In this document: in pieces, positions 869 through 40,011 of the stretch
Layout: each line of letters begins with the position of its first letter
Numbering within the stretch: the stretch's first letter is position 1
IMG/VR virus record: IMGVR_UViG_3300036984_000039
Location: 32,001-96,000 of that record
DNA: 64,000 bases
Strand: one strand, 5' to 3'
Origin: a virus
Taxonomy: Duplodnaviria > Caudoviricetes
Notes under the pieces: generated by a model
What the model saw: only the letters and a program-made list of their open reading frames with translations
The model's database searches: none
What the model was told of the DNA's origin: nothing
Made by a program: the position numbers and the translations under genes

Positions 869-1712
869 ACGACACTCCGCATAGACTAAATCCAGCGGCT
901 TCTTGAACTTACGTCCAAGCTACGGGTATTACTACCTGGCCCGTGTCCGGGCGTCTACGCATACTCCGCTTGCCAAAGGCAGCCGGTCTACGATGCTTGA
1001 TTTCCGTGGGCATCGGCAATCGTCCTGGCTCACCATGTTTGTATGACGAGAGGATATTGATTTGCCCTACTATGTCGCGGTGCCCACGGAAGCCACAGAC
1101 CGAGCAACGATAGACGCGCCCCTGTGGTTTATGTCGATTACCGCAACTTGGACAAGTTTGACTTGTATACGCTTCGTTTTGCAGTTTCACGGCGATACCC
1201 TCTGCCGCGGCCTTATACGTGGTATACTTGCGTACCTGACCGTGATTCCAACCGCTAACTTTCTGATTTGTGCGCTTGCCGAGCGCAACTTCATCGGCCA
1301 CGTCGCGCACATCGCCGTAGACGATAGTCGCCGCGCCCAGGACAACCGCTTCGTCTACAATCGCCCGGCTGATTTTGTGTTCCATATCGCGCAACACGCG
1401 GTTGTGCTTGGCTTTCATACGAGACTTGACACGCACCAACTTCTTATAGGCTCGACTACCGCGCTGCTTGCGGCTCAGGGACTTATCCAGAGATGCCAAT
1501 CGCTTGGCGTGACCTTGCGCTTCGTGCCGACGTTCGCGACAAGTGATGATAGTCGCACTGCTTTCATCACCAATTACAGCAGGATGAATCTCACCCGGAT
1601 CGACGCTTACTACGTTCATGCCCGGTGCTGACTTGGGTTGCTTGCCGTTTTCAACGACCACGTGCCAGGTGTAGCGCCGGTCGCGCTTGTCGAAAACCAA
1701 CCGCTGCACTGG
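869..1712 (-). pseudogene. tnpB: N-terminally truncated TnpB (IS200/IS605 family) with right end/omegaRNA
   Basis: RuvC I (VSVDPG), RuvC II (IVYGDV), zinc finger CPSC..CSVC and RuvC III (HRDIVGQINI). The HTH/REC N-terminus is absent. Right-end hairpin GAAGCCGCTGGATTTAGTCTATGCGGAGTGTC at 902-871. Confidence 0.85.
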
Positions 1713-1713
1713 T

Positions 1714-2073
1714 TCATATTCCGAGTAGCGCATTACGCTCGGCTTCCGGCAGAAACATCGGACGATACCATGCGCGCGGCATGTTGGCGTCAATCCAGGC
1801 CAGGGCTGTAGTGCTAACCATGAGCCAAACAACGGCCAACATGGATGACGGGTATCCTTCGATATCATCCGTCCAGCGAACCATTGCCTTGTTGGCGGAA
1901 TCGCCTTTGACGGCGGAAAGCACGGCATCAGCCTGTGATTCAAACATGCCGTTTGCGACCAGTTCTTTCCTTGCCCACTGCTCAAATGTCACTTTGATCT
2001 CCTTTCCTGCGAGCGGGTGATCGGCCCTTCCGCCCGATGAGGTACGGCGCTCAATCACCCGCCCAATGGTCAT
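1714..2073 (-). CDS. Hypothetical phage protein
   Basis: ORF coupled to the upstream gene by ATGA, with a GAGGA RBS. Confidence 0.6.
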   Translation of the reverse strand: MTIGRVIERRTSSGGRADHPLAGKEIKVTFEQWARKELVANGMFESQADAVLSAVKGDSANKAMVRWTDDIEGYPSSMLAVVWLMVSTTALAWIDANMPRAWYRPMFLPEAERNALLGI

Positions 2074-2240: not shown

Positions 2241-2546
2241 CTCACCCCTCCTTGTCGATCCGCACGTAAAACGGGCGGCTGGTCGGTCTCTGAAACACCG
2301 ATGCGTTGTGCCCGCGACCTTACTTGATCGGTCGCATTCATCACTTTTGAACAAGTTGGATCGGCAGCCAGCAACGCCAAGAAACTGGATCAATCCTTTG
2401 CTATCAGGTGCGCGCCCGTGTCGGATTTCTACCGCAGCAGCCGCCGCGCTTCAGGCATTTATGCGGGCGGGTTGTACGGGATGCCACTCCCGGCCAGGTC
2501 GCTTCATTCCCCGGCTGACCGACGCGCACCTGATAGAAAAGGATTC

Positions 2547-3127
2547 GATTTAGGCTCACGACACTTGCTCCGAGGTCTGCCTGTTAGCACACCTGCGCTT
2601 GACTCGTCCACATGGGTACTATGCCTACGCAGCCGGGTTCCATATCGGTGTCGGCTTGCCTACGATTATCATTCTTACTTATCCCTCATCACGCCGCGCC
2701 TCACGCTACCGAGTAGTCCTACGGTAACGGTCTGCTTGGGCTGTACCTGTCCGGGTTGCTATCTGCGGCTGCCTCACGGCATGACGCTCTTACCAGTCCG
2801 TCAACTCGCTGGCGTGTTAGCCCGGTGTCAGCGTTTGAACCTGCGCCACGGTTGCCCGTGCTTCGTGTCCACGCGCCTCCTGTTCATTACAGGGTATCAC
2901 CCGCGCTCACCGATCTGCTCTCGCCAAGTCACCGATCCGCCAGAACGGGTCGGGTGGCAAGTTTTGCGATTCGCGCTTTGTGATTCGAGAACTATGTGGA
3001 AGCGCCTGCAAACTGGTGGCTACGAGGTTCCGGTAAGAGGCCATCTGCTGTCATCCTTGCGGTGGCCCCCGCCATTCCTCTCGCCTGCGATGCGCTTCGG
3101 TTGTCAAGGTGCCTGCTACCCACCTAC
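2547..3127 (-). ncRNA. Large structured ncRNA, ROOL-like candidate
   Basis: About 580 nt with no credible ORF, directly downstream of a TTGACA-17-TATACT promoter. It has a boxA-like GCACCTTGACAAC and GNRA-capped hairpins (GCC-GTGA-GGC, CACGG-GCAA-CCGTG). Its motif order resembles ROOL from memory. Confidence 0.55.
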
Positions 3128-3133
3128 AAACAC

Positions 3134-3162
3134 AGTATAGCACAACCCGCTATGTTTGTCAA
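3134..3162 (-). promoter_or_regulatory. Sigma70-type promoter (early family, copy 1)
   Basis: TTGACA-N17-TATACT with extended TG. Confidence 0.85.
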
Positions 3163-3570: not shown

Positions 3571-4923
3571 TTGACGTACTCCCACGGCTAAAGCTCGTGG
3601 GATTCTGGGGTCAAACAGCAAGCGCCGGGCTTACCGGTCTTACCTCACCTAACCCAAGAGAGCACGCCCGCTCTCCTTCACTACGAATGTTCTTAGCTGC
3701 ATTATGGTCGCGGTCATGGATCGCGCCGCAGTTGGCGCATGTCCAGCGCCGTTCGGTCAAGCGCAACCCCTGATACAGCCATCCGCAGTCCGAGCATGTC
3801 TTGCTCGACGGATAGAAGCGATCCACCAGTGCCACGAGCTTGCCTTTGGTGCTGGCGACATAGCTTAGAATGCCCATGAATTCCGACCGGGCCAGATCGC
3901 TCACTTTGCGACCCCACAACCGAACCATGCCGCGCATGTTTAGATCCTCAAAGTACAGGTAATCGTACTGGTCGGTGAGCATGTGTGCCAGCTTGAAGAA
4001 CCAGTCCCGGCGCTGGTTGACTACTCGTTGGTGAATGCGTGCGACGCTCAGCTTGGCCTTACGCCAACCATGCGACCCTTTTACCTTGCGTGCTAAGTTC
4101 TGTTGCGCCAACTTCAACTCAGACATGACCTTCTGATAGTACAGCGGTGACTCGATCACCAGTCCCATGTCCGTGGTGATAAACGCTTTCAGCCCAAAAT
4201 CGAAACCTGCGCTGTTACCCGACATGATTCGGTTGCTTTGGTCTTCCGACATTTCTACCACGAAATAGAGCCAGAGCGCGCCCAAGTTATCGCGCTTGAT
4301 CGTCAACGTCTTGACCTCGGCCGGAATGTCACGGCTCTTGCTGTACTTATAAACCCGACCGCGAATCTTGATTCGATTGCCATCCAGCAACTTCCAACTG
4401 TTATGCTTGAGCGTGAAGCTACTGTATTTCTTGACCTTTTTAAAGCCGGGTGGTGAAGCCTTGACGCCCACTTTCAGGTTGTGAAAGAATAGCTTGTACG
4501 ACCGCTCAATGCGTTCCGCGATGCCTTGAATTGCTTGGGCATCAACTTCGTTCCAAAACGCGTAGCGTGGTCTCTGTTTGAGTTTGGCAATATGCTTCTG
4601 CAAATCGTACAAATTCAAATGTTTACCAGTCAAACGATAGTAGCGCCGATGTAAAGCAATTTCGTGGTTCCAGATAATACCAGCAATGTCGATCTGCTGG
4701 TTCAAGAACCGATTCCGCTTCGCCTTGTAGAGTTTGAACTTGTACGTTTTTATCATCGCGTTGCTCGGTTAAATGACAAGCCGCCCGGTGAAGCCATTCT
4801 TGTCGAGGGAATGTCTGTCGGACGGCCTGTGGTTAGCCCATTACTGGACGATCACCCTATTCAGCTATGGCCTCTTACTACATTCCCTCGACAAGACTTA
4901 TTCTAACACGTCTCGCTCTTTTT
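3571..4923 (-). mobile_element. Non-autonomous IS200/IS605 (IS1341-type) element carrying tnpB
   Basis: Preceded by TTGAC. Ends in the hairpin CCCACGAGCTTTAGCCGTGGGAGTACG followed by TCAA. Its removal restores an open reading frame. Confidence 0.85.
3611..4756 (-). CDS. tnpB: RNA-guided endonuclease TnpB (intact)
   Basis: N-terminal KTYKFKLY, RuvC GFDFG / FEDL / DRDHNAA, zinc finger CSDC..CANC. Confidence 0.95.
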   Translation of the reverse strand: MIKTYKFKLYKAKRNRFLNQQIDIAGIIWNHEIALHRRYYRLTGKHLNLYDLQKHIAKLKQRPRYAFWNEVDAQAIQGIAERIERSYKLFFHNLKVGVKASPPGFKKVKKYSSFTLKHNSWKLLDGNRIKIRGRVYKYSKSRDIPAEVKTLTIKRDNLGALWLYFVVEMSEDQSNRIMSGNSAGFDFGLKAFITTDMGLVIESPLYYQKVMSELKLAQQNLARKVKGSHGWRKAKLSVARIHQRVVNQRRDWFFKLAHMLTDQYDYLYFEDLNMRGMVRLWGRKVSDLARSEFMGILSYVASTKGKLVALVDRFYPSSKTCSDCGWLYQGLRLTERRWTCANCGAIHDRDHNAAKNIRSEGERACSLGLGEVRPVSPALAV

Positions 4924-12413: not shown

Positions 12414-12611
12414 TCACGGCTTCCACACGCGGATTTTCAATTCCTCTCGCGGTTCCTCCGCCTCGGCCTCCGGTGCATCCGGTCCGATCAGCGGCGCATC
12501 GTTCGGCTTCCGCAGCGACGACTCAAGGCCGTGCTCGTTGTCGATCAGCACGGCGATGATGGCCGCCACGCACAGGGCCACCGCCAGGAATTGCGCCAGC
12601 AGATTCGTCAC
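12414..12611 (-). CDS. Small membrane protein
   Basis: One N-terminal hydrophobic helix; GTGA coupling. Confidence 0.55.
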   Translation of the reverse strand: MTNLLAQFLAVALCVAAIIAVLIDNEHGLESSLRKPNDAPLIGPDAPEAEAEEPREELKIRVWKP

Positions 12612-12862
12612 TTTTTACCGGTCATCGCCACGCCGCACACGCTCGGCGGCGATGACGGGATGTTTTCCGTCAAACGAGCATATATCTCTGGCGATAGCAG
12701 GAGGTCGGCAAGCTCCCGATGCATTTCCAGCAGCTTCCCAAGATTGGCGAGCGCCGTTTGCAGATCATCGGCGGGCCGCCCTATGATGTCGTCGCCAAAT
12801 ACGGCCAGCCATCGGCCCTGCTCATTGCGCGTCAGTGTGATTAAGTAGCTCAGCGGTAGCAT
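12608..12862 (-). CDS. HicB-like small protein
   Basis: YLITLTRNEQGRWLAVF..ADDLQTALANL resembles the HicB N-terminal fold. Confidence 0.4.
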   Translation of the reverse strand: MLPLSYLITLTRNEQGRWLAVFGDDIIGRPADDLQTALANLGKLLEMHRELADLLLSPEIYARLTENIPSSPPSVCGVAMTGKK

Positions 12863-12873
12863 AGTGTCTCCGG

Positions 12874-13377
12874 TCAAGAGAAGAACTCCTTGAGCGCCTT
12901 GCCGATGCCGGACTTGCGCGTCGGCTCAGGCGCGGACTTGCGCCGCTTGCTGCGGCCCGGTTGCCGCGGCTGATCCTTCCAGGGTGTCGGCATGGGATTG
13001 AGATCGATATGTCCGATGACGCCCCCGGATGGTAACTTTTCCCCAACGTGATTACTGTCATACCAACCGTTTTGGCGCGCCGTCCCGGTCTGCCAACGCT
13101 CGGCATATTCCAGGTTCTTTGGATTGACCGGCGTGGATTCTAAACCGAACCCGGCTCGACATAATAGATACTCAGCCCATTCTGCGGCTTGATCATGCAC
13201 GGCAATGTGAATCTTATTGTATACTCCGCGCTCATCATTCTTGACCGTTCCGCCATCCCACACAATCGGATGCTTGAAGTCATAGGGCGCAAGCAGCTTA
13301 TTGTTGATGCCGCTAACGTAACTGCGCGCGGGCGCGCACAGCGGCGCGGCTATCGTGATTGTCCTGTAGCCAAACAT
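12874..13377 (-). CDS. Hypothetical protein
   Basis: ATG directly after an upstream TGA. The longer ORF-track call runs into the IS right end. Confidence 0.6.
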   Translation of the reverse strand: MFGYRTITIAAPLCAPARSYVSGINNKLLAPYDFKHPIVWDGGTVKNDERGVYNKIHIAVHDQAAEWAEYLLCRAGFGLESTPVNPKNLEYAERWQTGTARQNGWYDSNHVGEKLPSGGVIGHIDLNPMPTPWKDQPRQPGRSKRRKSAPEPTRKSGIGKALKEFFS

Positions 13378-13423
13378 CTCAGCCGACCCCAAGCAGCGCG
13401 AATGCCGTGACACTCCGCACGGA

Positions 13424-13610
13424 CTAAAGTCCGGCGGCTTCTTGGCGCACGCCCGCCCCAACTTCAGGCCACGTTATGCGCCAGGCGCGCTGTCCGCGCG
13501 CCAGCAGATTCAATGCGGCGTTCTCGTCCCGATCCATACTCAGGCCGCATTCACAACGCACCCAACGCTCTGCCAACGTTAGATGCGCAAAGATGGCCCC
13601 ACACTGCGAG
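13424..13610 (-). pseudogene. tnpB: tnpB 3' fragment (zinc finger and RuvC III) overlapping the omegaRNA
   Basis: SQCG..LTLAERWVRCECGLSMDRDENAALNLLARG..QEAAGL*. Confidence 0.9.
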
Positions 13611-13617
13611 GCGTAAC

Positions 13618-14139
13618 TCATGTTCTTCTGCTTACCAATTGGCACATCTTGATGAATTCTATTTCAGACAGGTTGCCCTTCATATTGTTTATTCGCCAAG
13701 AAACTAAAACAACATTTCCTTTTACGTATCCACACCCGGAATCTTTCCTGTCCAGGCTAACACCAGAATCTCCAGTTTCAAAAGTTAGAGGTTCCCCGGT
13801 GTAATAGCACAAGTAACTCTGCAAATCTAGTTGCGTGAGGAGATAATCTATATCAATGTCAAATATCCATCCTTCTGACTTAGAACGAGTTTTTGCAGAA
13901 TTGAGTAGGCGTAATAGGCGACCACGAAATCCACTACGGTACGCGGCATTTGATGCAGCAACGTCACAAGTTTTGCACCGACTAGACGGATTGGTAACAA
14001 GACTGCCTGGTTGCTTATGAACCTGATAGAACTGGTCAATGGGAAGGTTTTTCCCGCAACTAATACAGACCTTGTTTGTTCTATGGCGGGTTGCTTTGTG
14101 TCCTAGTTCTTGGCAAACTGAACAACGTTGCATTGACAT
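13618..14139 (-). CDS. HNH-type endonuclease occupying the deleted tnpB core
   Basis: N-terminal Cys pairs; CYYTGEPL..SLDRKDSGCGYVKGNVVLVSWRINNMKG; visibly lower GC than its flanks. Confidence 0.85.
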   Translation of the reverse strand: MSMQRCSVCQELGHKATRHRTNKVCISCGKNLPIDQFYQVHKQPGSLVTNPSSRCKTCDVAASNAAYRSGFRGRLLRLLNSAKTRSKSEGWIFDIDIDYLLTQLDLQSYLCYYTGEPLTFETGDSGVSLDRKDSGCGYVKGNVVLVSWRINNMKGNLSEIEFIKMCQLVSRRT

Positions 14140-14140
14140 G

Positions 14141-14278
14141 CTATTGCTCCGTCTCCCACGCATCCTTGCGCTCAGCCAGGCAGACGTTGTACCAGCGCCG
14201 GCACGTCTCCAGCGTCTGGTTCAACAACCGTTCCTGACTCTTGCTCGGATAGAGACGGTAGCGAAAAGTGGCAAGCAT
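14141..14278 (-). pseudogene. tnpB: tnpB 5' stub (HTH_OrfB_IS605)
   Basis: MLATFRYRLYPSKSQERLLNQTLETCRRWYNVCLAERKDAWE closely parallels the N-terminus of the intact TnpB at 33507. Confidence 0.9.
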
Positions 14279-14652
14279 TACAGGCCCTTCTGCGCGTCGA
14301 TGTACTTCTGGTCGGGTTGCATCGTGAGCCACCACCGAGGATTTGGCTTGTCTCGATTGCCTTTCGAGCCATTGCACGCAGCGCACAATGGTTGCAGGTT
14401 GCCATCTGTGTTCGTACCACCAACAGTCAACGGGGCGATGTGATCTATGCAGATGTACTCGCATGATCCACAATGGGCACATTTACCATCATGGGCCGCC
14501 AAAACGTCCAACCATCCCTGCAAGGTGATAACCTCATTGGGGCGTCCCATGTTACGAGCCCGCGCGTTTTGACTTCCGACGCGCATCGACCACATACGAC
14601 GCACTTCCCAATCTGACATACCGTCAGTCGTTCTGATGAGAAAGCTGCGCAT
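14278..14652 (-). CDS. HNH endonuclease
   Basis: CAHCG..IDHIAPLTVGGTNTDGNLQPLCAACNGSKG; RBS GGAG; TAATG coupling to the tnpB stub. Confidence 0.9.
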   Translation of the reverse strand: MRSFLIRTTDGMSDWEVRRMWSMRVGSQNARARNMGRPNEVITLQGWLDVLAAHDGKCAHCGSCEYICIDHIAPLTVGGTNTDGNLQPLCAACNGSKGNRDKPNPRWWLTMQPDQKYIDAQKGL

Positions 14653-14800
14653 TCTCCGTCTCCGTTTCCAGCCTTTCCCATTCATCTCGCGCCAGTCGTT
14701 CGATGACTGCCACCATCGACGTGTCGGTGGCGGCAGCAATGCGGCGCAGCAAACGTCTTGTCTTGAGCCAAACCTTGATTGTCGTAAATTCTTCGCTCAT
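14624..14800 (-). CDS. Ribbon-helix-helix-like regulator (leaderless)
   Basis: TTIKVWLKTRRLLRRIAAATDTSMVAVIERLA. ATG lies 7 nt after TTGACA-N17-TAGAAT (14836-14808). Confidence 0.7.
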   Translation of the reverse strand: MSEEFTTIKVWLKTRRLLRRIAAATDTSMVAVIERLARDEWERLETETENAQLSHQND

Positions 14801-14884
14801 GGTTGTAATTCTACAACGATAACAACAGGTTGTCAAGTTACGAGCGAGGCTGCAAGCACCGAGAAACCCGCCTATCCGCTCGGC

Positions 14885-15532
14885 CTAAAGGCCGGTGGCT
14901 TGCGGCGGGTTACGTCCCGTCAGTTTGATTTCCGGTTCTTTGCGCCCACAGGATAGACAAGTGTAATCGTATTCGGCCTTCAATGACTCCCATTGCGCAA
15001 TCGAGTAGTGCTCTCCTGCCTGTTCAATGCGAAGTCTGCGCTTATGCGTTTCGCGATTTCGTATCATTTTGCCGCGTTCTGGATTTTTCTTGTACCAGTT
15101 ACGGACGCTGGTGAGATTGCGTTCTGGATGGGCTGCCCTCCAACGTCTATTGCGCTCATTTGCCTCATCGCGGTGAGCACGCGCATATTCTTTCTTGTAA
15201 GCCCGAATATCATCTCGGTGAGCAGAATGCCACGCCTTAATCTTCTCGTCTTGTTCTGCCCGGTGAGCCAAGCGCCATACCTTGCGAGCCGCGACGCTTC
15301 TTTCCGTATTGGCTTGATGCCAAGCCTTGCTCTGAGCACAAATCTGTTCGCTATGCTTGGCATAGTAGGCTTTCCTTCTGGCCTTGATTTTATCAGGATG
15401 TGCTTTTCTGTAGGCTGCATCCGCAATGGCGACACACGCCTTACAACGATATTCAAGTCCATCCTTGCTACGTGACCGTTTTCTGAATTCAGATTCTAGT
15501 TTTTCGGAATGGCAAACGGAGCAGGTTTTCAT
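14885..15532 (-). pseudogene. HNH endonuclease truncated just before its DH motif by the IS left end
   Basis: CSVC..CKAC, basic helical repeats, then WESLKAEYDYTCLSCGRKEPEIKLT followed by IS-end sequence. Confidence 0.8.
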
Positions 15533-15678
15533 ACGACTTCCTCCCGTTTGGCCTTCTCTCGGATAGCGATCTCAATAATGGCCGCCATCGATACACCGGT
15601 CTTTTGCGCCAGCAATTTGAGCAGCCGCTTGGCCTCTGGCGTGAGGCGCAAGCTTGTGGACTTGGCTTCTTTTACCAT
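15529..15678 (-). CDS. Ribbon-helix-helix-like regulator (49 aa, not in ORF track)
   Basis: MVKEAKSTSLRLTPEAKRLLKLLAQKTGVSMAAIIEIAIREKAKREEVV; ATGA coupling to the HNH gene; promoter TTGACG-N17-TACAAT containing the inverted repeat ACGCATA..TATGCGT. Confidence 0.8.
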   Translation of the reverse strand: MVKEAKSTSLRLTPEAKRLLKLLAQKTGVSMAAIIEIAIREKAKREEVV

Positions 15679-15717
15679 AACGCTATTGTAACGCATATTG
15701 CGCTATGCGTCAATTCC

Positions 15718-29154: not shown

Positions 29155-29352
29155 CTAGGCTGGCTCCGGCTGGTCTTCGATCTGCACGACATAAAAATAC
29201 GGTACGCTCTTGGCCGTCTCAAGCTCGCCGGGATCAGTAACCTTGCGCAAGATCATCGGGATCGCGCCATTCGCATCTGGCGGGCCATCCTTGATCTCAA
29301 ACAGCGGCAGGTTCCGGTGTAGCGTCGGGTTGTAGTCCTCGTAATGAGTCAT
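29155..29352 (-). CDS. Small hypothetical protein
   Basis: RBS AAGGA; ends 2 nt before the next ATG. Confidence 0.5.
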   Translation of the reverse strand: MTHYEDYNPTLHRNLPLFEIKDGPPDANGAIPMILRKVTDPGELETAKSVPYFYVVQIEDQPEPA

Positions 29353-29492
29353 TGGATATTTCCTTAGCAGGCGGTGCGCAAAACGTGCAGCGCCAGACGA
29401 TGGGCTTGCCGCTCGGCTCATAGCCGACCACCTGGCCGGCGACCAGGCCACAGTTGCGCGGCGCATGGTCGGCGTACTGGCAATAGGCCAAC

Positions 29493-29885
29493 TCAGCCAT
29501 CGGCCACGTCATTCGGCCACAGGTCGGCGGGTAAGTCCAGGTACGCGCAGATCAGCCGCGCGGCGGTCAGCCAGTCGTAACATACCGCCGTGTGCCAGCC
29601 TTGCCGGGCGAGATAGGCCAGATACAGCTTTTGCTCCGGCGTCGGCTTGTTGCGACCGCTCTTAAGTTCAATCACCATGCCATTGCAGCCGTGCGCCCGT
29701 TCGCAAATCCAGACGTCCGGTACGCCTCTCCGCGTCCCAAGCCGCTGCATGTTGGCCGCGGTCGCCTTGCTGCGCATCCCGCCATTGGGTGGGTGAAAGG
29801 CAAAACGCAGCGCCTCTACCTCACCTTCGCGGGCGCGAATCCAGGCAAACAGCGCGGCTTGCTGCTCATCTTCGTCGTGTCTCAC
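29493..29885 (-). CDS. VRR-NUC domain nuclease
   Basis: EDEQQ..FHPPNGG..GVPDV..IELKSG..TPEQ. Confidence 0.9.
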   Translation of the reverse strand: MRHDEDEQQAALFAWIRAREGEVEALRFAFHPPNGGMRSKATAANMQRLGTRRGVPDVWICERAHGCNGMVIELKSGRNKPTPEQKLYLAYLARQGWHTAVCYDWLTAARLICAYLDLPADLWPNDVADG

Positions 29886-30241
29886 GGCTGCACGTCCACG
29901 CGCGCCAGACTATCACCTACCGAGAAGCCGTTCGGGTAACGCACCCTCAGCTTGGCGATGTTGGCGGCCATGATCTCGGATAGGTCAAGGCCGGTCAGCG
30001 TGCAGATGGCGGCCAAATACCACAGACAATCGCCGGTTTCGTCCGCCAGTTTCGCCATATCCAGGCCATGTCGATGCCAAACTTGCTTCTTAATCGCATT
30101 ACACATTTCGCCCGCTTCACCTGCAAGGCCCAGGGCGTGAAACAGCAGCGCAATTTCCTCCGGCGTGAAGGCTTGCGGCTCATGGTGCAGCGTGCGCGCG
30201 GCGGCGATCTGATAGGCGCGGGCGTCCAGCGGCTCAGGCAT
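29882..30241 (-). CDS. MazG-like nucleotide pyrophosphohydrolase
   Basis: LGLAGEAGE..ADETGDCLWY..NIAKLRVRYPNGF. Confidence 0.92.
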   Translation of the reverse strand: MPEPLDARAYQIAAARTLHHEPQAFTPEEIALLFHALGLAGEAGEMCNAIKKQVWHRHGLDMAKLADETGDCLWYLAAICTLTGLDLSEIMAANIAKLRVRYPNGFSVGDSLARVDVQP

Positions 30242-31895
30242 GGGCGAATAACTCCACGTCGGCGTCCGCGCCCTGCCCACCCACAATCCTCTCAGCGGCC
30301 ATTAGCAGGGCGCTACGCACGACTTCCGGGTAAATGCCGGTCTCAGGCGCGGGTGGCTCAGATAGGCTCGCTACGGCGTCCTGCGCCTCACTCGCCTTGA
30401 CCTCTGCCTCCGGCTGTTCCGTGCCCGCCTGCGCCTTCTGGCCCGGCGCGGTCGCGGGTGGCTCTTTGGTTGGCTTACCGTTACCCGCAGCGGCATTGGC
30501 GGCAGCCGCGGCGCTCTTGGCAAGCTGTGGCGGTACGACGCCCGGCGTATTGGGCGGCAACTCGCCGGCAGCAGCCTGCGCCGCCAACTGCTTCGCCGCT
30601 TCCGCCGCCGCTTTCTCGGCATCCGCTTTCGCCAGCTTTTGCGCTTCCTCGATATCCTTCGCGCTCTTGTACGGCATATTGAAAATCGCGCGCAACCACT
30701 CGGCATCTTCCGGCGCGGCGACGTTCAGGAATTCCGTGATATTGGCGAGCCATTGCGCGGTCGCGGGCGGCAGGACGGTGACGCGGGAATGGCTGATACG
30801 GGGATGATCGGAGATGCTGCCAAACTTACCGGGGTTGTTCGCCAACATACGCGGTACAAGATGCCGATTCCACACGTCCTGGATGCGATCCAGTGCGCCG
30901 TCCACGCCCATCGTAAACGCATCGTACATCGTGCCGCCGAGCGACTGCGTACCGCGCTCGGTGCTGCCCAAGCGCACGAACGTCGCAGCTTGCAGCGCGG
31001 CGATCTCCCAACGCAACTGGTCGATCCAGCCGCGAATGTCGCCCAGGTTGGAGAGTGAGACGGTCTTGAGGTCGCCGTCAACCATCGGGCCGGGCAACTT
31101 GACGTACTGCAACTCGCCCGCGGCCAGGCCCTCGCCGATCTCATCGACGGCGTTCAGGATCTTGTCATCGGGCGGTGAGAGGAATTTGAACCACGGCAGG
31201 CCGGTGCCGCCGCGCTGCGCGGTCGCGCCGCCGATCTGTTCAAGCTGCTCAATCAGGTACGCAATCCAGTACGCGGGTTCGAGCCAACCCAGGCCCTCAA
31301 TGCTGCCGCGCTCGTCGCCACCCACGTAATGCAGGAGCTTTTCAATGGGGATCGGCTCGGTCTGTTTGCCGGTGTTCGGGTCGGTTTGAATCATGGCTTG
31401 CAGGCCACCCGTTTCGTCAAGCTCCCATTTGTAGAGCGTTTCCTGGCGGCGCGTGGCGAGCTTCTTGAGGCCGATCAGCCCATCATCCCATTTGCTCGGC
31501 GCGGCGTCCTTGCCGGTGGGATTCTGACCGTTGCGCTTCTTCCAGACGATTTCGTGGTCGGCCCACCCGAAGGCCCAGGAGGACAGTGCAAATTGCACTG
31601 CGGACGCCAGGCTGGTACTAGTATCCTGTAAGCATTGATCCACGAACTCCGCGGCGTCCTGGTCAGCTTTGCTTTCGGCGGCGGGCGTCACCGTCCAACG
31701 CACTGACGAAGCGGCCAGGGTAACCATATTCCATGAGGTGTAGGCAGAAGGTTCACGACGCAAAACGCGGGCCATCTTGGCAATTCCCGATGGCCCGCGA
31801 AGAATTTCTGCATAGCGGTCACTGAGCAGACCGGCATACTCTTGCACACCGGTAACGCCCATAGACGCATAGAGGTTGAATTTCTTAGTCGGCAT
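30234..31895 (-). CDS. Portal protein (DUF935/Mu gp29-like)
   Basis: Follows the terminase; GWADHEIVWK, IPIEKLLHY, EGLGWLEPAY, WNRHLVPRM patterns. Confidence 0.85.
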   Translation of the reverse strand: MPTKKFNLYASMGVTGVQEYAGLLSDRYAEILRGPSGIAKMARVLRREPSAYTSWNMVTLAASSVRWTVTPAAESKADQDAAEFVDQCLQDTSTSLASAVQFALSSWAFGWADHEIVWKKRNGQNPTGKDAAPSKWDDGLIGLKKLATRRQETLYKWELDETGGLQAMIQTDPNTGKQTEPIPIEKLLHYVGGDERGSIEGLGWLEPAYWIAYLIEQLEQIGGATAQRGGTGLPWFKFLSPPDDKILNAVDEIGEGLAAGELQYVKLPGPMVDGDLKTVSLSNLGDIRGWIDQLRWEIAALQAATFVRLGSTERGTQSLGGTMYDAFTMGVDGALDRIQDVWNRHLVPRMLANNPGKFGSISDHPRISHSRVTVLPPATAQWLANITEFLNVAAPEDAEWLRAIFNMPYKSAKDIEEAQKLAKADAEKAAAEAAKQLAAQAAAGELPPNTPGVVPPQLAKSAAAAANAAAGNGKPTKEPPATAPGQKAQAGTEQPEAEVKASEAQDAVASLSEPPAPETGIYPEVVRSALLMAAERIVGGQGADADVELFAHA

Positions 31896-33478: not shown

Positions 33479-34670
33479 TGTATAGATTCCGCGATACAAT
33501 ATCGCCATGAGATTAACGTACAAGTATCGAATCTTTCCGAGTAAATCACAGCGAACTTCCCTTAAGAAGGTACTTGGTGCATGTCGCTTCGTGTACAACA
33601 AGGCATTGGAAACTAGAAAAAATGCATGGGAAGAACGCCAAGAAGCTGTCAGTAAATACGATACGATTAATCTCATCCCTCAGTGGAAAGCTGAAAATGA
33701 ATGGCTTAAAGACGGTCACGCACAGGCTATGCAAGAAGCCTTGACGCGTCTTGATTTGGCTTTCCGCTCGTTCTTTCGCCGCGTGAAAGCTGGAGAAAAA
33801 CCAGGATATCCACGATTCAGATCGGCTGATCGTTACGATTCGTTTACGTATCCTCAAGAAAGGGGCAACTGGCGATTTCTCGATAATGGCCGCGTACGTC
33901 TGTCTAAGATTGGTGATGTCAAAATCAAGTTGCACCGCCCTCTTAGCGGGGAGTGCAAGACCCTGACCATTCAACGCGATGCTATTGGCAACTGGTACGC
34001 TTGCTTCTCTTGCATCGTTGAAGCCAATCCACTGATACCTACGGATAAGATAGTTGGAATCGACGTTGGTTTGACTCACTTTGCAACCCTGAGCGATGGA
34101 AGCCAAATTGATAATCCCCGCTTCTTTCGCAAGAGTGAAGATGCACTTGTAGCCGTACAGCGCCACTTGTCGAAAGAGACAAAGGGCACACCGGGATTTC
34201 ATCATTACAAGCGTGTGCTCAATCATATTCATCAGCGAATTGCCAATCGGCGCAAGAACTTTGCACACCAAGAATCGCGTAAGCTGATCGACAAGTATCA
34301 ACTAATCGCCTTTGAGGATTTGGACATCAACGGTATGATGGACGGCAACCACCGCGGTATGAACAAGAGTATTTGTGACGTTGCGTGGAATCAATTTGTG
34401 CAATTCACGACGAGCAAGGCGGAAGGTGCTGGCCGTCGCGTGGTACTTGTTGATCCGCGTAACACAACAAAACTCTGTTCCCGTTGCGGTGAAATTGTCC
34501 CCAAGAAAATGTCCGTTCGTGTTCATGTCTGCCCTAAGTGCGATATCGTGCTTGATCGGGATCATAATGCTGCTTTGAACATTCTTGCCCGCGGATTAGC
34601 TGGCATCAGCACCGGTTCGCCGGTTGTAGCTGTAGAAGCCCCGGCTTTAGCCGTGGGAGTAATCACTGAC
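33477..34670 (+). mobile_element. Non-autonomous IS200/IS605 element carrying tnpB, inserted at the terL start
   Basis: Right-end hairpin GAAGCCCCGGCTTTAGCCGTGGGAGTAATCAC. TGACA occurs on both sides, so the equivalent boundary is 33473-34666. Confidence 0.8.
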
Positions 34671-34709
34671 ACGGCCATGTTTTCAGTATATGCTAAGGCA
34701 ACACGTTAG
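33507..34709 (+). CDS. tnpB: RNA-guided endonuclease TnpB (intact, leaderless)
   Basis: TYKYRIFP, GIDVG, FEDL, CSRC..CPKC, DRDHNAA. ATG lies 6 nt after TTGACA-N17-TACAAT. Confidence 0.95.
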   Translation: MRLTYKYRIFPSKSQRTSLKKVLGACRFVYNKALETRKNAWEERQEAVSKYDTINLIPQWKAENEWLKDGHAQAMQEALTRLDLAFRSFFRRVKAGEKPGYPRFRSADRYDSFTYPQERGNWRFLDNGRVRLSKIGDVKIKLHRPLSGECKTLTIQRDAIGNWYACFSCIVEANPLIPTDKIVGIDVGLTHFATLSDGSQIDNPRFFRKSEDALVAVQRHLSKETKGTPGFHHYKRVLNHIHQRIANRRKNFAHQESRKLIDKYQLIAFEDLDINGMMDGNHRGMNKSICDVAWNQFVQFTTSKAEGAGRRVVLVDPRNTTKLCSRCGEIVPKKMSVRVHVCPKCDIVLDRDHNAALNILARGLAGISTGSPVVAVEAPALAVGVITDTAMFSVYAKATR

Positions 34710-38949: not shown

Positions 38950-39000
38950 TAACGAGCGTTACCCCACGTATGCGATTGTCAAAGCGTGTGAGTTCCTGGT

Positions 39001-39645
39001 TCATCTGGCGGCCTTACTGCTCCTACCATCCCCAGGCCGATAATCAACAATCTTATCGTGCTTGCTGCAATTGCAGGACTTGCAAAGCGGCTGAAGGTTA
39101 TCGATGGTATGCGATCCGCCTTTTGACAAGGGTACAATATGATCTTGCGTGATATTCTCTGACGAACCACATCGAAGACAGACGTTCCCGTAATGGTTAC
39201 ATAACTGCATCCATGCAGACTCGGAAACGACTCCACCAGCCCCCTTCTTTCTAGCTCTCCGCCGTCTGTGTGCCTCTCTTAGCTTATCGACGTTAGTCTT
39301 CTGCCATTTCCTTACCGCCTCCAAACATCGTCCCGGATGCCGCAAGTAGTATCGTCCCGGATGCCGCAAGTGGTACAGGCGATCATTTGCTTGCTTTTTG
39401 TCGGGGTTGTTTTTCGCCCACTGTCGAGACCTTTCTCTATCCCTAACGGCTATTCCAGGATACCGTTCGCGTTGCTTCTCGTTGATCTCGTCCTTGTTTT
39501 TTGCGCGCCATTCGCGTTGATAAGCGGCATGTTCAGCCCTATTTTCCTGTCGCCAAATCCTTGAACGTTCTCTCCCGCATGGCGCGCATTTCCCGTTTTT
39601 CAACCATTCAGACGAACCACATCTAGGACATATCTTAGTAGCCAT
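39001..39645 (-). CDS. HNH endonuclease occupying the position of tnpB
   Basis: CPRC..CAPC; CLRCG..QDHIVPLSKGGSHTIDNLQPLCKSCNCSK. Confidence 0.92.
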   Translation of the reverse strand: MATKICPRCGSSEWLKNGKCAPCGRERSRIWRQENRAEHAAYQREWRAKNKDEINEKQRERYPGIAVRDRERSRQWAKNNPDKKQANDRLYHLRHPGRYYLRHPGRCLEAVRKWQKTNVDKLREAHRRRRARKKGAGGVVSESAWMQLCNHYGNVCLRCGSSENITQDHIVPLSKGGSHTIDNLQPLCKSCNCSKHDKIVDYRPGDGRSSKAAR

Positions 39646-39745
39646 TTGTCCAATTCCAAGTAAAGCGCGCAATACCGGCACAGCGCCAAAAATACTGTTC
39701 CTGCTCAGGCGTCGGGTTTAGTCGTATACGATGCGCTCTGTGCAT
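39635..39745 (-). pseudogene. tnpB: tnpB 5' stub (36 aa, not in ORF track)
   Basis: MHRAHRIRLNPTPEQEQYFWRCAGIARFTWNW matches the TnpB N-terminal HTH; RBS AAGGAGG. Confidence 0.85.
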
Positions 39746-39884
39746 CGACACCCTCCTTCTGTGCCTTCTCGCGAACGGCTATCTCGATGACTGCGGTACG
39801 CGTTACGCCCAACTTGTGCGCCAGCAACACGAGTAACTCGCGACACTCATCTGTGAACCCGTAGGTGGATTTCGTCTTTGGCAT
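39705..39884 (-). CDS. Ribbon-helix-helix-like regulator (leaderless)
   Basis: Paralog of 15529-15678 (LLAHKLGVTRTAVIEIAVREKA). ATG lies 6 nt after TTGACA-N16-TATAAT. Confidence 0.8.
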   Translation of the reverse strand: MPKTKSTYGFTDECRELLVLLAHKLGVTRTAVIEIAVREKAQKEGVDAQSASYTTKPDA

Positions 39885-40011
39885 ATTTACATTATACATA
39901 CTTTTCGCGTCTTGTCAAGCAACTGCAAACGGGGTTCTCAACTGATTGCCTTGACTGTGTAACGGCTAAAAGCCTGTCCAGCGGGCCTATAGGGTGAAGT
40001 TAAATGCACGG

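Follow-up and report, generated by a model that had tools for sequence, protein, structure and literature searches.

Insertion sequences (IS) of the IS605 type, for which IS608 and ISDra2 serve as models, have hairpin ends, insert 3' of a fixed tetranucleotide, carry overlapping tnpA and tnpB genes and encode an omegaRNA that lies over the 3' end of tnpB. Here we describe an element that shares these features, with a right end closing in TCAC, in a 64,000-nucleotide (nt) stretch of phage DNA (the window). The window corresponds to bases 32001-96000 of one 107,546-base virus record, and all coordinates below are window coordinates unless they are marked as genome positions. Unlike the model elements, this one has 11 tnpA codons and 45 plus about 61 tnpB codons left, and it can neither transpose nor home alone. 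Two nuclease genes, which we call HNH1 and HNH2, stand in the places of the lost tnpA and tnpB sequence. They are most likely nested selfish genes and not a new RNA-guided system.

Ends without a transposase are also characteristic of palindrome-associated transposable elements (PATEs) and of TnpB-only elements of the IS1341 type, and the present shell resembles both in that mobility would need TnpA in trans. PATEs are short, multicopy and free of cargo, whereas this shell is single-copy, 1512 nt long and filled with three foreign or accessory genes. The accessory protein Arc represses IS605 promoters, and within the same clade, homing endonucleases are noted beside arc genes (Moon, Zedaveinyte, Wiegand & Sternberg, bioRxiv 10.64898/2026.09.24.754181). 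As in the Arc-containing IS605 elements of that study, a small ribbon-helix-helix (RHH) gene lies inside the IS boundaries near a strong promoter; unlike in those elements, the putative arc gene is followed here by an HNH gene fused to the tail of tnpA.

Free-standing HNH genes of phages, such as T4 mobE and the Seg/Mob genes, offer a further comparison, being small nuclease genes with sporadic distribution, deviant GC content and insertion that respects open reading frames (ORFs). In T4, mobE promotes homing in trans of a neighboring defunct element (PMC2790892). In contrast to these genes, the landing site here is a transposon's own genes, and HNH2 is a PacI-like variant that lacks the histidine. 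In IscB and Cas9, as at this locus, a gene for an RNA-guided nuclease of the RuvC type is split into N- and C-terminal portions by HNH-type sequence and has a guide RNA beside it. A fusion of HNH within RuvC was nevertheless rejected, because a TAG stop follows tnpB codon 45, HNH2 has an ORF of its own and the RuvC-I/II core (274 residues) is deleted; an intein or other fusion was rejected because stop codons separate the frames. The element combines known kinds of parts, namely a non-autonomous IS605 shell, free-standing genes of the homing-endonuclease type and Arc.

An IS605-type shell with both of its genes hollowed out

A preliminary description of this DNA read the locus as an IS605-type element whose tnpB core had been swapped for an HNH nuclease gene, with the ends and the omegaRNA kept. 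Pfam matches and homology blocks recover every part that it listed, all on the minus strand, as are all other features associated with the element (Table 1). The swap itself is borne out by tnpB stubs corresponding to residues 1-45 and ~320-380 and by ends that align to relatives. For this comparison, we assembled about 190 loci of the TnpB subfamily cognate to the shell, consisting of 110 loci from viral contigs and genomes (mostly metagenome-assembled genomes of Chloroflexota) and 80 metagenome loci. Canonical relatives are organized as left end (LE)-tnpA(Y1)-tnpB-right end (RE) over about 1680 nt, or as LE-tnpB-RE. BLAST of the element against this set always returns three blocks (14918/14911-14843, 14311-14144 and 13610-13407) with sharp, reproducible edges, leaving 76, 168 and 204 nt of retained IS sequence in what is a single IS200/IS605-family element running from 14918 to 13407.

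Table 1. Features of the element and its immediate surroundings in the window
Feature	Positions	Strand	Remarks
Interrupted gene	14888-15532	-	Paralogue of the HNH gene 39004-39681 (HNH3); now ends inside LE
TGAC target motif, like a target-adjacent motif (TAM)	14919-14922	-	Flanks LE, within codons L-T of the interrupted gene 14888-15532
LE with subterminal hairpin	14843-14918	-	Outer stem AACCCGCC...GGCGGGTT; inner CCGGCC/GGCCG
Sigma-70-type promoter	14808-14836	-	TTGACA-17-TAGAAT; 11/12 consensus matches
Arc-type RHH gene	14627-14800	-	58 amino acids (aa); weak Pfam RHH-type match
HNH1, canonical HNH endonuclease gene	14281-14652	-	124 aa; Pfam HNH PF01844 (E 3.3e-8); phrog_1035 (E 2.4e-15)
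tnpB codons 1-45	14144-14278	-	Pfam PF12323 HTH_OrfB_IS605 (E 1.2e-15); TAG stop at 14143-14141
HNH2	13621-14139	-	173 aa; zinc knuckle, zinc ribbon and predicted C-terminal His-Me-finger domain without catalytic His
tnpB codons ~320-380	13427-13609	-	Zinc finger and RuvC-III remnant; Pfam PF07282 Cas12f1-like_TNB (E 5.8e-7); frame still open
omegaRNA scaffold	13410-13521	-	Three hairpins and closing helix; includes RE hairpin 13437-13415; inside retained block
Last three bases of RE	13407-13409	-	Terminus ...GAGTGTCAC; element end at 13407
Flank read as putative 20-nt guide	13387-13406	-	GGCATTCGCGCTGCTTGGGG; position next to RE

The record is a metagenome-assembled virus contig and IS copies are repeats, circumstances in which an assembler might join reads of different genomes at conserved IS sequences. 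Such an artifact is extremely improbable here, as it would take four chimeric joints within 1.5 kb. Further, the four junctions (14843, 14311, 14143 and 13610) fall at the edges of conserved blocks and not inside them, and they yield coupled gene starts (TAATG and GGAG-7-ATG) and an in-frame fusion. CheckV rates the record as complete; no end repeats were found in it.

Both ends carry subterminal imperfect hairpins and no terminal inverted repeats, and could be aligned to many relatives (88 for LE, 161 for RE). LE is 82 to 91% identical to the left ends of canonical elements, with compensatory changes in its stems, and folds as DNA at -16.2 kcal/mol. TGAC precedes the left-end core AACCCGCCGCAAGCC by 6 to 9 nt in 68 of the 88 distinct relative flanks and by 7 nt in the window. 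Because TGAC at 14922-14919 directly precedes it, 14918 is the first base of the element, which moves the left end from the previously proposed 14913. At the other end, the homology of relatives stops at 13407 in every case; TCAC closes the right end in 130 of 161 relatives and likewise at 13407 here. As the IS200/IS605 insertion rule has it, the TGAC motif 5' of LE resembles the right-end terminus TCAC.

Aligned to six TnpB proteins of 380 aa, the two tnpB stubs correspond to residues 1-45 and ~320-380, so residues 46 to ~319 have been replaced (about 274 residues gone) and the element encodes no intact TnpB with WED, REC and RuvC domains. The 45-residue stub is 84 to 91% identical in aa sequence to the N termini of dozens of 380-aa TnpBs; one protein whose N terminus matches it is named Ardenticatenaceae. 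Between the stubs, low-GC foreign DNA containing HNH2 spans 14143-13611. With 42.8% GC (37.6% at third codon positions), the HNH2 stretch is lower in GC than any other 520 nt of the phage (mean, 59.4%; standard deviation, 4.3), which bears out the low GC noted at first. The stub's TAG ends one base before the HNH2 ATG, and the GGAG at 14150-14147, inside the stub and 7 nt before that ATG, is the ribosome-binding site, as had been suggested. Elsewhere in the phage, genome positions ~98600-99300, outside the window, form the sole other stretch at or below 46% GC in 520-nt windows. A separate protein, P0079 (from an ENA contig of 1008 nt), has TnpB residues 1-45 fused in frame to PF12684, a PD-(D/E)XK-like domain; its break codon is that of the window stub, a coincidence that may be due to chance among about 10 such truncated proteins in the list.

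The exchange is not confined to the tnpB core: tnpA has been hollowed out as well. The final ~11 tnpA codons (14311-14281) survive, fused in frame to HNH1. The second homology block starts 33 nt upstream of the tnpB ATG, which in relatives corresponds to the codons of the TnpA C terminus, and TnpA of relatives ends in IQKYIxAQKGL where HNH1 ends in DQKYIDAQKGL. The HNH1 stop overlaps the tnpB start as TAATG. No Y1 (HUH) transposase TnpA (PF01797) was matched anywhere in the phage. Four other full-size tnpB genes are present in the phage, all of different subfamilies and none of them cognate to the shell. The shell is non-autonomous because the phage has neither tnpA nor a cognate tnpB. A PATE-like derivative, or one resembling a multicopy miniature inverted-repeat transposable element (MITE), was rejected because the ends are present but the phage holds one copy and no other was found elsewhere.

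The replaced regions carry a putative arc gene and two nuclease-type genes

The replaced tnpA stretch (14842-14312) begins with the promoter, with 7 nt separating the end of its -10 box from the ATG of the RHH gene. Because of this spacing, the RHH gene is probably leaderless. Its sole homologue among the ~190 IS loci is the arc gene upstream of tnpB in the phage contig L013 and in L014; the RHH gene lying directly upstream of tnpB in L013 is 44% identical over 41 aa and has the same promoter and leaderless layout. By analogy with Arc, the RHH protein probably represses the promoter from which it is expressed. RHH genes directly upstream of tnpB occur in at least six lineages among the loci fetched (L013/L014, L016, L024/L102, L030-L032/L034 and L103), and in L103 the left end lies 112 nt ahead of the RHH start. 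The closest relatives that lack arc (L137 and L142) give no sign of arc being native to the lineage, and arc may have arrived with HNH1 or may already have been resident.

Two phage contigs among these contain modules of the order promoter-arc-tnpB-RE (L013:2830-4163 and L016:2820-4160), with a canonical right end and TGAC just upstream of the promoter. Because the left-end hairpin is absent from them, these copies look non-mobilizable by TnpA.

HNH1 overlaps the RHH gene by 29 nt and has the motif CxxC...DH...N...CxxC (CAHC...DH...N...CAAC) with two CxxC zinc pairs. HNH2 is less conventional. Although it was first described as an HNH nuclease, and its predicted fold does resemble His-Me-finger proteins, the canonical catalytic histidine is absent. 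It matches PHROG endonuclease VII and endonuclease families (E 8e-27 for phrog_1035, and 4e-24); no family was matched in Pfam or NCBIfam, and no sequence in the PDB. Its family comprises 10,238 representatives at E<=1e-3, the best of them 47% identical, with the motif CxYTG...S(I/L)DR...GY...N...W..N.MK in addition to the zinc knuckle and zinc ribbon, and with invariant residues Y138, N142, N151 and K154. An AlphaFold2 (AF2) model (predicted local distance difference test, pLDDT, 94) gives middling fold matches that are mostly His-Me-finger nucleases: PacI (Z 6.6; root mean square deviation 4.0 over 87 aligned residues), Gme HNH (Z 6.3), T4 endonuclease VII (Z 4.7) and numerous HNH domains of Cas9.

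A second tnpB stub and the distribution of the nuclease genes

The same phage contains a second N-terminal tnpB stub. A genome-wide Pfam scan finds codons 1-32 at 39650-39745 on the minus strand (PF12323, E 7e-15, profile positions 1-33), within a region (38985-39920) where the stub is flanked by an arc-type RHH gene (39705-39884), a paralogue of arc, on one side and by HNH3 on the other. A degenerate omegaRNA-like remnant follows the HNH3 stop. To judge from this arrangement of sequence, tnpB was replaced by an HNH gene independently at the second stub, and events of this kind recur.

None of the ~190 IS loci contains a homologue of HNH1 or HNH2. HNH1 has no relative in viral contigs and, in a set of 5.8 billion proteins, nothing beyond one 81-aa protein at 55% identity. 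For HNH2, a word-based search returned no relative closer than 35% identity, and none was found at E<=1e-3 in five IS-rich genomes or at E<=1e-5 in 401 genomes of the same phylum. The preliminary description had asked how often HNH2 homologues are flanked by tnpB stubs and omegaRNA; the eight viral loci with distant HNH2 relatives show no TnpB remnant and no IS end. A narrower alignment of HNH2 gave four viral loci, with TnpB in none. No viral contig contains a match to the 24-mer across the junction. The unit is a singleton, and further copies of it were not found in the sequences searched, an outcome that the preliminary description had itself named as speaking against its reading. A sporadic distribution of this sort is typical of homing-endonuclease genes. 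As a separate observation, four of the eight loci with HNH2 relatives adjoin a large capsid-like gene, of giant-virus type by its look.

The positions of the nuclease genes raise the question of whether they do the work of the genes they displaced. Both stand exactly at the places of tnpA and tnpB and use the element's expression signals, and a tnpB-to-HNH replacement has occurred twice in this phage, as would be expected if the HNH proteins had become an adapted component that performs the retention job of TnpB or the job of TnpA. We consider such functional substitution very unlikely. Neither the ~190 IS copies nor the databases searched contain a relative of the composite. To our knowledge, the single-strand transposition carried out by Y1 enzymes is not a reaction of HNH enzymes, which tells against a takeover of TnpA's role. 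As for TnpB, it has been argued that a protein-guided nuclease is unable to keep up with a transposon that moves to new sites, since it cannot be retargeted after each transposition (PMC13565253). The earlier proposal that an HNH protein replaces TnpB as the maintenance nuclease is unsupported, given this argument and the lack of HNH relatives in the IS copies.

The omegaRNA module is intact

To examine the RNA, we built an alignment from the terminal ~234 nt of 23 elements. Its consensus structure comprises six helices with a total of 29 pairs, and compensatory changes are seen at 23 of these pairs. Pairing is found in 97.7% of cells, versus 30 to 50% when partners are slid by 1 to 3 columns; the covariation score is 0.587, versus at most 0.125 for slid partners, and was reached by 0 of 500 shuffles. 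The window copy retains 29 of 29 pairs, overlaps the 3' end of tnpB and terminates at RE. The apparent intactness of omegaRNA and right end noted at the outset holds at the level of both sequence and structure. By analogy with other IS605-type elements, the flank beside RE could be read as the guide. The next phage gene begins at 13380, and no terminator-like site was found on the element strand. Rfam searches of the region and of the whole window gave nothing relevant, with no sign of a group I or group II intron or an IStron.

These properties would suit an element that parasitizes by guide RNA only, its omegaRNA being loaded by the TnpB of an IS in the host and cutting insertion-free phage genomes (TGAC, then GGCATTCGCG...); it would then home between coinfecting phages without encoding TnpB. 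Besides the full set of pairs and the intact right end, the location of the RNA region downstream of a strong promoter fits this idea. So does the abundance of the cognate TnpB subfamily in Chloroflexota and their phages among the sampled loci, Chloroflexota being the likely hosts. We nonetheless think this unlikely. A recent event explains an intact RNA equally well, and because the second stub keeps a mere degenerate RNA remnant, orphan omegaRNAs are not generally maintained. Use of the omegaRNA by TnpB in trans is possible, solely with a host enzyme, because the phage lacks a cognate TnpB. Nothing points to its use by the HNH protein, as had also been speculated.

The interrupted gene and the reconstructed empty site

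The gene interrupted by the element is incomplete beyond the insertion itself. In tblastn searches, HNH3 residues 40-175 match 15331-14936, with the HNH motif missing and the gene cut just before the DH catalytic motif. Joining the flanks at the reconstructed empty site (...AAACTGAC followed by GGCATTCG...) gives a frame that reads ...KLTAFALLGVG and then stops, without restoring the catalytic part of the target gene. HNH1 as the lost 3' half of this gene was ruled out, since both cover the same part of HNH3. No DNA match to 12600-15700 was found in the GenBank phage collection.

The missing 3' HNH motif and the failure of the empty-site join to restore the gene would be accounted for if the stretch 14918-13407 had never been one transposon, two separate IS insertions, one giving the left end and the other the tnpA tail, tnpB and right end, having flanked a resident Arc-HNH cassette before later deletions. 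The phage contains two other RHH-HNH pairs, one directly upstream of the element, which lends this composite origin some plausibility. It is rather unlikely, since it requires two insertions in the same orientation within ~700 nt and two deletions, one of them in frame, and one element of near-canonical length (1512 versus ~1680 nt) is simpler.

In the pair directly upstream, the RHH gene (15532-15696, minus strand) overlaps the start of the interrupted gene by ATGA, like arc over tnpB in L013. The pair 14888-15696 may itself derive from an arc-tnpB module whose nuclease gene was swapped in full.

Homing-endonuclease-type genes probably invaded an IS605 copy

We favor the explanation that genes of the homing-endonuclease type invaded an IS605 copy, whose remaining blocks are leftover flanks, and hold it to be probably correct. 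In the order of events that we infer, an IS605-type copy (LE-tnpA-tnpB-RE) would have inserted 3' of TGAC in an HNH-like gene of the phage. The body of tnpA would have given way to an Arc (RHH)-HNH cassette that brought its own promoter or, alternatively, the HNH gene alone would have taken the place of tnpA beside an arc gene already present. TnpB residues 46 to ~319 would have been replaced by a PacI-like His-Me-finger gene, foreign and low in GC, its almost ORF-exact placement allowing HNH2 to be translated from the Shine-Dalgarno sequence inside the tnpB stub. The four reading frames would form one operon under an Arc-controlled promoter, with the transcript continuing through the omegaRNA region. 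The 76-, 168- and 204-nt blocks are most simply understood as what would remain flanking such replacements, and the suggestion that HNH genes hitchhike on IS ends fits the data. A precedent lies in T4, where mobE shows that a free-standing HNH gene can carry along a neighboring defunct element (PMC2790892).

If the nucleases cut alleles in which tnpA or tnpB is intact, and so home into transposon copies, the IS blocks could double as homology arms. Homing of this kind fits the sporadic distribution, the foreign GC content, the ORF-exact placement and the recurrence of the event. A stronger version would see a maintained selfish element of three layers, in which host TnpA moves the ends, the omegaRNA borrows host TnpB for cutting phage genomes without the element and the nucleases hollow out intact IS605 copies. 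This is unlikely; if true, it would define a class of homing endonuclease specialized on transposon genes, with the IS blocks as homology arms.

Several results weigh against the invasion that we favor. Searches turned up neither another copy of the unit nor a close relative of HNH1 or HNH2, and for this reason spread by homing is unsupported for the element. In IMG/VR, queries with the downstream gene and an FtsK-like gene yielded no kin phage that has an empty site. Because the empty-site join leaves the target gene incomplete, an extra deletion or a more complex, two-insertion history appears to be needed. The intact RNA module could equally reflect selection and not youth. Finally, the position of the HNH catalytic histidine is occupied by arginine (SLDR) across the HNH2 family. 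PacI-type enzymes without this histidine use a loop tyrosine instead (PMC5714182), and by analogy with PacI and from the invariant Y138, nuclease activity of HNH2 is plausible.

As a single-copy element known from sequence alone, the locus is a curiosity on its own. Its wider interest is that transposon genes in phage genomes may offer landing sites to genes of the homing-endonuclease type, given one element in which both tnpA and tnpB are replaced and a second tnpB replacement in the same phage. If the IS blocks are homology arms, protein-guided homing nucleases would prey on RNA-guided ones. In the literature searched, such conflict between selfish elements is mentioned just in passing (arc genes beside homing endonucleases), and nuclease genes replacing tnpB in phage genomes were not found described as a pattern. 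The locus also provides a natural test case for an orphan omegaRNA working with TnpB supplied in trans.

Other sequences in the phage

A region of ~750 nt at 2400-3140 (minus strand), upstream of a small gene at ~2240, is GC-rich and has no convincing ORF and no Rfam match. The gene at 871-1724 (minus strand) encodes a TnpB seemingly without its N-terminal ~100 residues, with a likely start at ~1724 after the stop of the upstream phage gene; by eye, the position of its central RuvC glutamate looks altered (IVYGDVRDV). A hairpin at 871-905 that resembles a right end is 89% identical to 13409-13444. It was rejected as a second copy of the element, since it goes with another TnpB subfamily and the whole family has the motif. 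Further full-size tnpB genes, which represent different subfamilies, lie at 3611-4756 (minus strand), at 33507-34709 (plus strand) and, outside the window, at genome positions 29170-30426. The right end of the 33507-34709 copy (…GGGAGTAATCAC) falls within its own reading frame.

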